Positions 55,300 to 60,786 of a DNA stretch of 64,000 bases are shown here, piece after piece. This DNA is from Escherichia coli. GTDB lineage: Bacteria > Pseudomonadota > Gammaproteobacteria > Enterobacterales > Enterobacteriaceae. Under the pieces are notes generated by a model. The model did not search any database. It was not told the origin of the DNA and was given only the letters and a program-made list of their open reading frames with translations. The position numbers were made by a program, and so were the translations under genes. Positions within the stretch are counted from its first letter, which is position 1. Every line of letters starts with the position of its first letter. The stretch lies in NCBI RefSeq assembly GCF_003991155.1, contig NZ_CP031297.1; one strand, given 5' to 3'.

Positions 55300-58200
55300 A
55301 TGATCAATTTCAAGCCTAAAATTCCGGCGATGCTTGGGGCTCTGGCGGTTCTTACCGCTGGTGCTGCTCATGCAGAGCTGCTGGAATACACCTTTAAGGC
55401 TCCAGATGGTACGCAACGGTCTCTGACTCCGAATGCCAACTATGCCAACCCAACGGGCAATATCTCGTTTGCCTTGAGTGCCGGTATCGACCGAAAGGTA
55501 AAGATTTCGGTGCTTCGGTCGGATGGAACAGTGGTTTCGACAGCGACCAGCCACCTTCTTGGGGCTACTGATCGCATCACAGTGGGTGGAAAATCCTACT
55601 ATGGTGCGGAACTTCAACTACCAGCTCCAGTTGGTGGGGCATACACTATCAGGGCGGAAATTCTTGCCTCTGATGGTTCTACAGTACAGACGGATGAATA
55701 CCCTCTTACTGTCGATGTGACGCCGCCAACCTACTCTTCGCTTGCCCCGGTTTATAGTAACTATGGGCAGGTTACTAGCGGTGATGTTTGGAAACTGGGT
55801 CTAGGTGGCTCTGAGGATAATGCCTTTTTGCTGTCAGGAATCTCTGATGAGTCACCCATCAAAGGCGTCAAAGCAAAGCTGTATCGTCAAGACGGTTCAC
55901 TCTACAAAGATGTATCCGTGAACTACGATGACGCTAACGGACAAGCTAGACAGTCTTTCCAATCTGGCTTTTTCCCAGCCTCTGACTTGGATGAAGTGTT
56001 TACACTTCAGTTTGAGATAAGCGATAGCGCTGGAAATAGCTATCTTTCACCTCGTCAAAAAGTGATGTTTGATAGCATAACCAATGCTCCGTCTGCACCT
56101 TTTGGTGTTTATGACCCTTCAAGTACAAACAACTTAGGCCCTGGATTAACCGGATTTGTTGCTTACACTGAGGGCATGACAGTTAAAACTAACCCAATCA
56201 AGTTAGCTTGGCGTGTTCCGCGTGATAACTGGCATGAGTATAGAGAAGGTGGGATAAATATGACCAATGCCTTGGGAGAGATGTCCAAGGTAGGAGAAGA
56301 TGCCAGCTATGTTTATCTCGTCACAACCGCACCTTATGGCAATACCGACGGCAATTATTGGCGTTGGGTGAACTTCGGCCAGTGGGGGGGAGGCGGTATT
56401 GCTTATAACCTCACACTCTCTCCATCAGCGCCTAAAAGTCCCAGACTTTTGGGTGTGGACTACAATTACAGTGATATAGGATGGTCTAGTTTTTACCGCT
56501 ACTGGGTGAACAATTCTGTTCTTCCTGTCACTGTTAGTAGTATCCGTGTCAAAGTTGAACCAAGGCCTTACGTTCAAACTGCCGTTCACAGGGGAAGCTG
56601 TGAAATTCCTGTTGGTCAAGATAGCTGCGTGATTGCAAATAGCTTCACAATGGCTAAAGGCACAACAGGGTACGTCCACGATAATGCGACAGTTTTCAAT
56701 CCGGATAAATCTCTTCGCTCGAATCCTCTTTGGGCAGAGGTTAACTGGAACGATCAGCACTACCCTCAGCTAAGTCAGCAGTTCGATCAAAATAGCAAGG
56801 TATTTACCTTATTCGTTAACCAGCCAGGACGAGGCGCTTACTTTGATAGGCTGCGTCTGCGAAGTGCATGGATTGAAGATAGCAAAGGCAACAAGCTGTC
56901 TCCAACTGGTGGGTTAATAGCCAACAACTGGGAGAACTACACTTACCAGTGGGATCTTAAAACTCTCCCTGAGGGGCAATACAGTCTTGTTGCCGCAGCA
57001 GAGGAGATGCACGGGCCTTTAACGCGACAACCAATGTTCCAGATAACGTCTGATAGAACGCCACCAACCATGACACTCAGTGTGGCAGATGGAGCAGCTA
57101 TCCAGACTCTAGATGATGTTGTTATTACCTTGGCTGATGCTATCGACCCTTCACCTAAATTGACCTCTATTGCCCTTGTAGGGGGGCCTGCCAATGACAA
57201 GGTGCAGTTGTCTTGGCGTGAGGAGTCGAAAGGTCGATTCCGCCTTGAGTACCCGGTAATGTTCCCTTCTTTGAAGGAAGGGGAATCTTACACGCTGACT
57301 GTTTCCGGTGAGGATGCACAAGGCAATGCGGTTCAAAAGGCTGTTGGCTTCGAGTACAAACCTCGTCAGGTAATGCTGGCGGATGGGATGGATGGCAAGG
57401 TCATGGTCCCCGCTGTCACTCATGAATTTGTTCATGCAGATGGCAAACGGATCATCGAAACCAAGCCGCTGACGCTCAGTGATGGTGCTGTCGTGACAGG
57501 TTCATACGACGTGTTTGCGACCCTACGTTCTGATGCGAAAGTACCGCTGGTGGTTAATGGGGTGCGTATCGAGCCAGGCCAGACAATGGGGATCATGAGC
57601 CAACATGATTTCGGTGCGTCAGGTGGTCGTTTGAGCATTCCGGTTAAACCTGCTGTTCCTGATGTGGTCGGCTCTTCCAGCCTTCTTGTCATGACCTCCG
57701 CGCCGAACTCACCCATCTTGGTTGTGGACATCAATACCTGGAAAGGGACGGCTAAGCTCTCTGCTGAATCATGGACAATTCGCCAGGTCATTGACCCAGT
57801 GAAAATCTATGCCCTGCCAGAGTCGGGTGTGCCTTGCCGGTTCACCACGAAAGAGGATGTGGCTATGGCCGCAGACCCAATTCGTGACCCGGTGTGTTTG
57901 CTCCAGTGGGACAGAACTCCAGATGAGGCTGAACAAACTACGCAGGACAACAACGGGATGAAAGTTGCTGGGCTGGTGGGGCAGGCTGTGAGCATTGGTG
58001 AACAACCTGTCGAATACAGCCTGTACCTGTTCAGTGGTGACGGTTCCAAGGTAAAAGTTGGGTCTGGCTCTCAGAACCTGACGGTAACTACTGCCTATGG
58101 CTCTGTTGGCTACACCCCGATTGATGACATTGCTCAGGTGAATCGCGTCATTGAAGATTTTGATGTGAACTTCAAGCAGAGCAAGGGGCCAGACTGTTCT

Positions 58201-60786: not shown

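Follow-up and report, generated by a model that had tools for sequence, protein, structure and literature searches.

The 64,000-nucleotide stretch of DNA that was analyzed (the window) carries, between a pilin gene and a DsbC-family gene of a conjugative transfer region, a single open reading frame for a giant Ig-like protein, and the question raised by this locus is what such a protein does there. The initial annotation took the gene for an unusual insertion within the operon of a GI-type type IV secretion system (T4SS) and guessed at a function in conjugation. The gene is no new element, but an already named and partly characterized backbone gene of IncC (IncA/C) plasmids. About 500 PLSDB plasmids encode a protein 100% identical to it, WP_000606835.1, which is that of type-1 plasmids, pMS6198A among them; in the nomenclature of orf1832 and orf1847, which serves as a marker of type-1 versus type-2 IncC plasmids (PMC6872532), the gene has the type-1 rather than the type-2 sequence, with 1832 codons counted from the ATG at 55288. 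The explanation that we favor as a whole, and consider likely, is that orf1832 is the type-1 allele of a conserved IncA/IncC backbone gene, encoding a giant "Big" protein that aids transfer through a role at the pilus or the cell surface.

Plasmid context and transcription of the gene

The maximal plus-strand open reading frame in the list for the window runs from a TTG at 55264 to the stop codon at 60786, as one uninterrupted giant frame of the size first described. The best start is the ATG at 55300, with GGAG just 5' of it (55290-55293), which gives the product of 1828 amino acids; the literature name orf1832 derives from the start at ATG 55288, which gives 1832. The order of genes is traA, the giant gene, the DsbC-family gene and then traC (Table 1). 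The window is IncC plasmid backbone with an MOBH/MPF-F transfer region (traLEKBVA-ORF-dsbC-traC…traN), in which the F-type genes annotated are those of TraL, E, K, B, V, A, C, W, U and N together with TrhF and the MobH relaxase, and relatives are typed by PLSDB as IncC, MOBH, MPF_F. The F-type gene content and the MPF_F typing rule out a GI-type T4SS locus (MPF-G, ICEHin1056/ICEclc-like) and place the system in the MOBH/MPF-F group (SXT/R391-IncA/C-IncHI).

Table 1. Features at and around orf1832, in positions of the window
Feature	Position	Strand	Basis
traA, F-type pilin family; upstream neighbor, final gene of the traV-traA unit	54707..55099	+	Identical plasmids: RefSeq "TraA family conjugative transfer protein"
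Hairpin followed by a T-rich run (UUAUUUUUU) 3' of traA; likely terminator or attenuator	55131..55152	+	RNA fold, dG -22 kcal/mol, z -3.6
Insertion site, in relatives such as pMS6198A, of the 4.5-kb ISEcp1-blaCMY-blc-sugE island	55193..55198	.	Breakpoint mapping versus pMS6198A; duplicated ~ATTTCC
AcaCD activator box of the gene's own promoter (TTATTTGCTCAAAAAGGGCACTTCCACAG)	55199..55227	+	Transferred from pVCR94 ChIP-exo/MAST site 47674-47702, p 1.7e-11 (Table S3, PMC4207636)
Predicted transcription start	55263..55265	+	Inferred from pVCR94 5'-RACE start 47738-47740, offset 7525
Coding sequence of the giant Ig-like protein, 1828 aa	55300..60786	+	orf1832 = WP_000606835.1 = MS6198_A094; RefSeq call
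Signal peptide, aa 1-25, AHA/E cleavage site by eye	55300..55374	+	Sequence; N-terminal pattern kept in 46 homologues
RSP2-like N-half, aa 5-797: DUF4165, Big_3_2, variable region, Big_3_3 and one more beta domain	55312..57690	+	BLASTP, Pfam, AlphaFold2
Variable cassette, aa ~144-596, distinguishing orf1832 from orf1847	55730..57087	+	blastn, protein identity, GC
RSP-like C-half, aa 822-1819: chain of Ig-like beta-sandwiches, three conserved Cys pairs	57763..60756	+	BLASTP, AlphaFold2, Foldseek, Cys conservation
Weak PKD-domain match, aa ~1586-1648	60055..60243	+	Pfam PF00801, single match, E 2.4e-4; fold generic Ig-like
Intrinsic terminator of the giant gene, 10-bp stem and then a T run	60801..60824	+	Terminator scan; fold dG -16.5, z -3.4
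AcaCD box of the next unit (dsbC-traC-...-traU)	60840..60868	+	pVCR94 site 53360-53388 mapped onto the window
DsbC-family disulfide isomerase gene, downstream neighbor	60935..61642	+	Open reading frame list, annotation

A foreign inserted gene is ruled out as well, by its retention in IncA, in IncC of types 1 and 2 and in distant relatives; an imported look appears to be confined to an internal cassette. An orthologue of only 29% identity (L011) occupies the same slot between traA and dsbC, and other relatives are placed elsewhere within or beside MPF-F tra clusters. Linkage to MPF-F tra genes is kept at 29-56% identity (L006, L009, L011, L012, L013, L014), and the gene lies inside or adjoining the transfer region in six of the seven distant relatives examined. 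The gene is absent from some natural IncC plasmids (Table 1 of PMC6872532) and has an IS insertion within it in some others (H41).

The gene was first placed within the T4SS operon, but the signals around it indicate that it forms a transcription unit of its own, with traVA before it and dsbC-traU after it; this unit would be expressed together with the transfer genes from an AcaCD-activated promoter. The upstream motif that had been noticed is the AcaCD box, which matches the traL, traV, dsbC and vcrx068 boxes of the window and lies about 36-64 bp 5' of the predicted transcription start. The data on AcaCD-dependent transcription come from the pVCR94 orthologue vcrx076, which has an AcaCD ChIP-exo peak, a motif, a mapped transcription start and an RNA value that goes from 3 to 2495 (PMC4207636, Table S3), and the AcaCD transfer regulon includes the gene (PMC4207636). 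A sigma-70 promoter scan upstream of the gene found no plus-strand promoter, as is expected of a promoter that depends on an activator. Both of the flanking hairpins that were read as terminators are present. The site that the 4.5-kb island occupies in pMS6198A, abutting the AcaCD box on its upstream side, is empty in the window.

Architecture of the protein and its exchangeable cassette

The predicted signal peptide holds up on comparison: the N-terminus (MINFKPKIPAMLGALAVLTAGAAHA/ELLEY) has the look of a Sec signal peptide, and members of the family share it. Pfam assigns DUF4165 to aa 23-141 (E 9e-61), Big_3_2 to aa 142-259 (E 7e-39) and Big_3_3 to aa 545-697 (E 1.5e-62), and AlphaFold2 models are confidently all-beta for both the N-half (pLDDT 89.7, pTM 0.72) and the C-half (pLDDT 87.6, pTM 0.43), in agreement with the beta-rich, modular build first described. 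From domain sizes, the chain of ~200 kDa is estimated to contain roughly 17-18 beta-sandwich domains. With a cutoff of E<0.01, self-BLAST of the protein detected no repeat within the sequence, so the "repeat modules" of the initial annotation are true at the level of folds only; among the domains that it proposed for the search, Big domains are found, and the PKD-like C-terminal region corresponds to one weak match. Four pairs of cysteines are conserved across the family, each at 91-100%, and the gene adjoins one for a DsbC-family protein.

Scans of the protein for a T1SS signal, RTX repeats, LPXTG, RGD, an autotransporter barrel or a membrane anchor found none; NCBIfam has no family for this open reading frame or for RSP, PADLOC matched no defense model and a sequence search of the PDB matched no chain. 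With the C-half as query, Foldseek matched only long rods of Ig domains. The fold matches of the protein include the SiiE adhesin and S-layer proteins, and are generic beta-sandwiches only, with no lectin or other known binding fold. The top matches are alpha-2-macroglobulin-like, an assignment that is ruled out by the low TM-scores (0.1-0.2), by the lack of a CxEQ motif and by the lack of a helical TED in the all-beta models. Giant BIg adhesins (SiiE, invasin/intimin) and Ig-rod proteins (GhpA) are alike in their rods of tandem Ig-like beta-sandwiches, but the TM-scores to them are only 0.1-0.2, and the IncC protein has no T1SS signal, RTX repeats or beta-barrel anchor; a giant BIg adhesin of the T1SS/T5SS kind (SiiE, BapA, intimin/invasin) is ruled out by the presence of a signal peptide and the absence of RTX repeats and of a barrel in the AlphaFold2 models. 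A homologue of TraN or PilV is likewise ruled out, since Pfam shows neither a TraN nor a pilin domain and a separate traN is present.

Two proteins of IncHI plasmids are homologous to parts of the chain. The N-half aligns with RSP2 of R27 by BLASTP at E 2e-58 and with an 818-aa IncHI2 paralogue at E 2e-134; the C-half aligns with aa 372-1405 of R27 RSP at E 1e-63, with 24% identity over ~1000 aa. RSP2 (R0055; 794 aa, from R27) and the IncHI2 paralogues of 818 aa have the same architecture as the N-half (DUF4165, Big, variable middle, Big_3), and the alignment is full-length, with the ends kept and the middle diverged in both. RSP2 and these paralogues are encoded by separate genes away from rsp, whereas in IncC the RSP2-like and RSP-like parts are joined in one protein. 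RSP (1432 aa, IncHI1 R27) is encoded directly upstream of trhF-trhW-trhU-trhN, also in an MOBH/MPF-F plasmid; it is extracellular and needed for conjugation, but has no N-half of DUF4165, Big_3_2 and Big_3_3, its own N-terminus of ~370 aa being different. By these alignments, the IncC protein corresponds to two separate proteins of IncHI R27 joined in one chain, which is not stated in the literature consulted. It belongs with the plasmid Big proteins of MOBH plasmids by its homology to RSP and RSP2, by its size, Big domains and DUF4165, and by its location in or near the transfer region.

The type-2 allele (orf1847, vcrx076 of pVCR94, ALG87338.1 of pKAZ3) shares the traA-[gene]-dsbC locus and the AcaCD promoter, but its ~450-aa cassette is replaced and its protein is 15 aa longer. 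In comparison with this 1843-aa protein, identity is about 78% (tblastn) and the difference is limited to aa ~120-600. The cassette has no blastn similarity to the type-2 plasmid, while its flanks are 97.4-98% identical; at the protein level identity is 14-42% per 50-aa window within it (about 24% overall) and mostly 96-100% in the remainder. The GC content is 46.8% in the cassette versus 53.7%, and is low in both IncC cassettes relative to the remaining gene. The cassette is the least conserved part of the protein, and about 15 types of it, below ~38% identity to one another, occur across the family. At least four lineages show a swap of cassettes between backbones of 80-99% identity, and in one element two types stand in tandem. 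By sequence comparison, residues ~144-596 form an exchangeable low-GC cassette, which the literature consulted does not state.

Secretion, transfer and rival explanations

Evidence for a role in transfer comes from the type-2 allele and from the IncHI homologues. The pKAZ3 protein, assigned to type 2 from the supplement of PMC8730810, was found in the secretome by Hüttener et al. 2022, and its knock-out lowered conjugation in liquid at 25 C, with P about 0.04 in one study, whereas at 37 C the protein was not needed; the deletion primer in the supplement maps to 55264-55305 of the window (PMC8730810). As reported in the same paper, TraDIS of pMS6198A, which encodes the identical protein, found the gene dispensable for conjugation at 37 C. 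With secretion and a requirement at 25 C recorded for the pKAZ3 allele and with the gene in the AcaCD regulon, the conjugation function guessed at by the initial annotation is partly supported. Regulation, secretion and the 25 C phenotype were measured on type 2 only.

For the IncHI homologues, PMC8730810 reports that RSP and RSP2 of R27 co-precipitate and bind both pili and flagella, that their export needs TrhH and TrhA, and that the export of RSP2 depends on RSP in trans. This mechanism of binding to pili and flagella is the one proposed in the literature and is demonstrated for the IncHI homologues only. RSP binds flagella and lowers motility, whereas the pKAZ3 knock-out, unlike those of RSP and RSP2, left motility unchanged (PMC8730810), so the IncHI mechanism may transfer incompletely. 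By analogy with the IncHI proteins, the IncC protein would be exported by the Sec pathway, acquire its disulfide bonds in the periplasm and leave the cell in a manner dependent on the T4SS and pilus, as RSP and RSP2 do. It would then decorate the conjugative pilus, the cell surface or both, with the RSP-like half forming a rod with an exposed C-terminus and the RSP2-like half bearing the swappable cassette of ~450 aa as a likely ligand-binding, or otherwise selected, surface. Such decoration may stabilize pili or contacts between donor and recipient where mating is hard, that is, in liquid and at low temperature.

Against the favored explanation, the only functional datum for the type-1 allele is the negative TraDIS result at 37 C, the 25 C phenotype belonging to the type-2 allele with its cassette of only ~24% identity; the natural IncC plasmids in which the gene is absent or interrupted speak against it as well.

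A further proposal, which we put forward tentatively and consider less likely than not, is that the IncA/C protein unites in a single chain what IncHI plasmids make as the interacting pair RSP2 and RSP, in the Rosetta-stone sense, and that the cassette is a swapped specificity module for whatever the pilus-linked rod binds, be it the surface of a recipient, the pilus itself or a target driven by phage or immunity. [quoted passage not shown]

The rival that survives best, although we regard it as doubtful, sharpens an idea of the initial annotation: an adhesin for recipient recognition, in which the cassette binds a surface structure of the recipient and sets the range or efficiency of mating, as TraN variants or the shufflon tips of PilV do, so that cassette types would target different recipients. 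The diversity of the cassette, its exchange among closely related backbones, the tandem pair and the lower GC of both IncC cassettes are all consistent with it, as is a conjugation phenotype in liquid, where contact is limiting. TraN, the F-type adhesin of mating-pair stabilization, is a possible functional analogue as an outer-surface factor with allelic specificity groups, but it has no homology to the giant protein, and IncC plasmids have their own downstream traN, the product of which sets Sfx exclusion specificity (PMC11493245). Recognition of recipients is also opposed by the binding of IncHI homologues to structures of the donor (pili and flagella) and by the generic folds among the Foldseek matches, and evasion of phages or antibodies could equally explain the diversity of the cassette. 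Evasion of this kind is the substance of a second rival, which we consider improbable: a shield of the pilus or surface under diversifying selection, with a cassette that evades pilus-specific phages, grazers or host antibodies and only a secondary effect on conjugation. A hypervariable, exchanged cassette does resemble those of antigenically selected surface proteins, and RSP is antigenic and surface exposed (PMC11268884), but the knock-out phenotype that was measured is one of transfer and the protein matched no PADLOC defense model. The weakest rival, which has very little chance of being right, is that the gene is plasmid cargo for a T4SS-independent adhesin to host or abiotic surfaces or a biofilm factor (like SiiE, BapA or invasin-type BIg adhesins), for which speak the giant tandem-Ig architecture with its SiiE and S-layer fold matches and the position of the gene in the interval between traA and s054 (dsbC) that is the variable hotspot HS2 of SXT/R391 (PMC3850215), and against which speak the absence of the export and anchoring signals named above, the absence of nearby secretion genes other than those of the T4SS, the linkage to MPF-F tra genes that persists at identities as low as 29%, even where the position in the cluster shifts, membership in the AcaCD regulon (PMC4207636) and homology to RSP and RSP2, for both of which conjugation phenotypes are known.

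On the favored explanation of a giant protein that aids transfer from the pilus or cell surface, the gene matters for the spread of resistance. IncC plasmids rank among the main vehicles of resistance genes, including blaCMY and blaNDM, across Enterobacterales, Vibrio and Aeromonas, and a secreted, surface-exposed promoter of their transfer at environmental temperature might be targeted with antibodies or nanobodies. For the RSP of IncHI plasmids such targeting has been shown: nanobodies against its last 280 aa agglutinate cells that carry R27 and impair conjugation (PMC11268884).

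Gene identity, plasmid setting and regulation

The segment at 54000-62000 matched 1009 plasmids in PLSDB by megablast, 1000 of them typed conjugative, from Klebsiella, Escherichia, Salmonella, Citrobacter, Vibrio, Providencia, Aeromonas and other hosts, and is present in 143 of 5426 complete E. coli genomes, nearly always plasmid-borne and often at 100% identity. The region is an IncA/C conjugative backbone, sister of SXT/R391 ICEs, where cargo hotspot HS2 occupies the corresponding traA-s054 interval (PMC3850215). The GI-type (MPF-G) secretion system proposed in the initial annotation is rejected because the deposited gene order (mobH-traD-…-traL-traE-traK-traB-traV-traA-[Ig-like]-dsbC-traC-…-S26 peptidase (trhF)-traW-…-traU-traN) is F-type and the relatives are typed IncC or IncA, MOBH, MPF_F. 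Nor is the giant gene an atypical insertion newly come to light: it is almost certainly orf1832 (type 1), which with orf1847 (type 2) supplies two of the four IncC plasmid typing markers (PMC6872532). As a discovery it is already known, and only two results described below, the single-chain relation to IncHI proteins and the exchange of cassettes, go beyond what was found in print.

The longest frame begins at TTG 55264, which is the likely transcription start position and is thus implausible as a start codon; ATG 55300, preceded by GGAG, yields the RefSeq product of 1828 aa, and ATG 55288 yields 1832 aa without a Shine-Dalgarno sequence. The N-terminus (MINFKPKIPAMLGALAVLTAGAAHA/ELLEY) resembles a Sec signal peptide. 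The ORF, signal peptide, upstream motif and flanking terminators had been described accurately, and the motif corresponds to a binding site of the transfer master activator AcaCD. For the pVCR94 orthologue vcrx076, Carraro et al. 2014 (Table S3) list a ChIP-exo peak for AcaCD, a motif spanning 47674-47702 (p 1.7e-11), a transcription start by 5'-RACE at 47738-47740, and monocistronic expression of 3 without and 2495 with AcaCD; its promoter is among the AcaCD/SgaCD reporter constructs cloned by Durand et al. 2021. These coordinates, carried over with an offset of 7525, place the orf1832 box (TTATTTGCTCAAAAAGGGCACTTCCACAG) in alignment with those of traL, traV, vcrx068 and dsbC within the window; the next transcription unit starts at dsbC with its own box.

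Features of orf1832, its protein and related loci (nt in the window unless a locus is named; aa in the orf1832 protein)
Feature	Location	Remark
Hairpin terminator, upstream	55131-55152	
ISEcp1-blaCMY-blc-sugE insertion point	55193-55199	~ATTTCC duplication; unit at 2700-7180 of the pMS6198A locus
AcaCD box, orf1832	55199-55227	transferred from pVCR94
Longest frame	55264-60786 (+)	
GGAG	55290-55293	
Cassette	55730-57087	
Hairpin terminator, downstream	60801-60824	
AcaCD box, dsbC	60840-60868	
DUF4165	aa 23-141	Pfam, E 1e-39 to 1e-62 across the three main domains
Big_3_2	aa 142-259	Pfam, same E span
Big_3_3	aa 545-697	Pfam, same E span
PKD	near aa 1586-1648	Pfam, single weak match
818-aa protein gene	L002 (pHK0653) 8929-11385	about 4 places per IncHI2 record
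719-aa Ig-like ORF; 198-aa Ig-like fragment	L008 (R27) 926-3085; 7630-8226	
EAL-domain gene	L001 24171-24842	same backbone, past the window's 3' end; conjugation role not obvious
Tandem paralogues, 1828 + 1815 aa	L009 (E. hormaechei) 4326-15448	both full-length; different cassette types; between traA and dsbC
Homologue, 29% identity	L011	same traA-dsbC slot as orf1832
Homologue, 2464 aa	L013	between traV and traA
Homologue, 2303 aa	L012	upstream of trhF-traW-traU-traN, like rsp in R27
Homologue, 1749 aa	L006 (Cupriavidus plasmid)	directly after traN
Homologue, 1820 aa	L014	3 kb from traF-traH-traG
1352-aa variant	L010 (Pseudomonas sp., 600-kb contig) 10001-14059	

The EAL-domain gene (c-di-GMP phosphodiesterase family) is part of the dsbC-traU transfer operon, with the traW homologue on one side and traU on the other.

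Relation to RSP and RSP2 of IncHI plasmids

By BLASTP, aa 5-797 of the IncC protein match aa 6-788 of R27 RSP2 (E 2e-58) and aa 822-1819 match aa 372-1405 of R27 RSP (E 1e-63), so that RSP2-like and RSP-like modules are joined in one polypeptide; the N-half is closer still to an 818-aa protein of IncHI2 (E 2e-134). In R27 the two are separate, interacting proteins: rsp (1432-aa product) is directly upstream of trhF-trhW-trhU-trhN, and RSP2 (R0055, 794 aa) is encoded elsewhere on the plasmid. The words "fusion" and "fused" are absent from PMC8730810, and the single-chain relation was not found in print, though it may be published elsewhere. According to that article, RSP and RSP2 co-precipitate and RSP is needed for RSP2 export; both label the conjugative pilus, and the pilin TrhA and TrhH are required for export. 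Agglutination of R27+ cells and impaired transfer were seen with nanobodies directed at the 280 C-terminal residues of RSP, a region that aligns with the C-terminus of the IncC protein (PMC11268884).

RSP2 is stated in PMC8730810 to be absent from IncHI2; the 818-aa DUF4165/Ig-like proteins of IncHI2 have 35% identity to R27 RSP2 over the full length (E 2e-122), and distant RSP2-type paralogues are evidently present there, several per plasmid. R27 carries further Ig-like genes beyond rsp and rsp2, one of which (the 719-aa ORF) abuts an IS30 transposase gene with an overlap of ~50 bp.

AlphaFold2 models built on alignments of 47 (N-half) and 43 (C-half) sequences gave pLDDT 89.7 and pTM 0.72 for aa 26-817 and pLDDT 87.6 and pTM 0.43 for aa 800-1828; both halves are predicted to be essentially all-beta, and the modelled C-half resembles a string of beads. 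For the PKD-like character ascribed to C-terminal segments there is one weak Pfam match, and the many repeat modules hold at the level of the fold only, as the protein sequence is without internal sequence repeat; it is also without a long hydrophobic segment, and thioester, RTX, LPXTG and RGD motifs were sought in it and not found. Eight cysteines are arranged in four close pairs (434/443, 846/866, 966/991, 1754/1771), each 91-100% conserved in 43 full-length homologues, which together with the adjoining DsbC-family gene would fit oxidative folding in the periplasm.

An exchangeable cassette

Type-1 and type-2 proteins are 96-100% identical outside aa ~120-600 and 14-42% identical within it (50-aa windows). 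The DNA flanks of the cassette are 97.4-98% identical between types, and the cassette itself has no detectable DNA similarity to the type-2 plasmid. GC is about 46-47% in both cassettes versus about 54% in the rest of the gene (type 1: GC 46.8% and GC3 43.6%, against 53.7% and 58.4%; type 2, unrelated in sequence: GC 46.0% overall). The low GC of both suggests that they were imported from donors of lower GC, for example Vibrio or Shewanella plasmids, which carry related cassettes. Among the 43 full-length family members this region is the least conserved and can be grouped into about 15 types that share less than ~38% identity. Many homologue pairs combine backbones 80-99% identical with cassettes 22-28% identical, a combination seen in four lineages (the IncC group; a five-type Vibrio group; proteins P0010/24/26; proteins P0031/49), and converse pairs combine cassettes 50-61% identical with backbones 32-44% identical. 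Conserved ends around a diverged middle are found also in IncHI2 and R27 RSP2-type proteins, and an integrated IncC-like transfer region in an Enterobacter hormaechei chromosome (CP042571) carries two paralogues in tandem. This pattern is typical of a module that is exchanged repeatedly under some diversifying or type-maintaining selection. The earlier idea of an adhesin for recipient recognition may hold as a sub-hypothesis, which the cassette data make testable.

Conjugation phenotypes and linkage to transfer genes

In Hüttener et al. 2022 (PMC8730810), protein ALG87338.1 of the IncA/C plasmid pKAZ3 (1843 aa; DUF4165, Big_3_2 and Big_3_3) was detected in the cell-free secretome by LC-MS/MS, and its knock-out left motility and conjugation at 37 C as before and strongly lowered conjugation in liquid at 25 C. 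The deletion primer matches window 55264-55305, and the length and alignment residues in Fig. S1 identify the pKAZ3 allele as type 2; thus, the positive 25 C phenotype belongs to the sister allele. For the type-1 allele, the sole functional result is negative at 37 C: the same paper reports that MS6198_A094 of pMS6198A, whose protein is exactly that of the window, scored without influence on conjugation in TraDIS, at 37 C only. An accessory role in conjugation is probable, and a pilus-binding route can be put forward tentatively. Most likely, the product is an AcaCD-induced, Sec-exported, disulfide-bonded Ig-rod of the RSP/RSP2 family, which would leave the cell through or along the secretion system or pilus and would aid mating in liquid at ambient temperature.

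Many IncC plasmids with blaCMY, pMS6198A among them, carry a 4.5-kb ISEcp1-blaCMY-blc-sugE unit whose insertion point coincides precisely with the upstream edge of the orf1832 AcaCD box. Box, transcription start and ORF remain intact, and the promoter's upstream context is replaced; this bears on the published TraDIS, which was done with such a plasmid.

Six of the seven distant homologues examined are inside or beside a MOBH/MPF-F tra cluster. The seventh, the Pseudomonas variant, has no tra genes within 10 kb; its C-terminal domains are cadherin-like/Big_9, its neighbours are hypothetical genes and an adjoining thioredoxin gene, and it is possibly the IncP-2-type Big protein of the literature.
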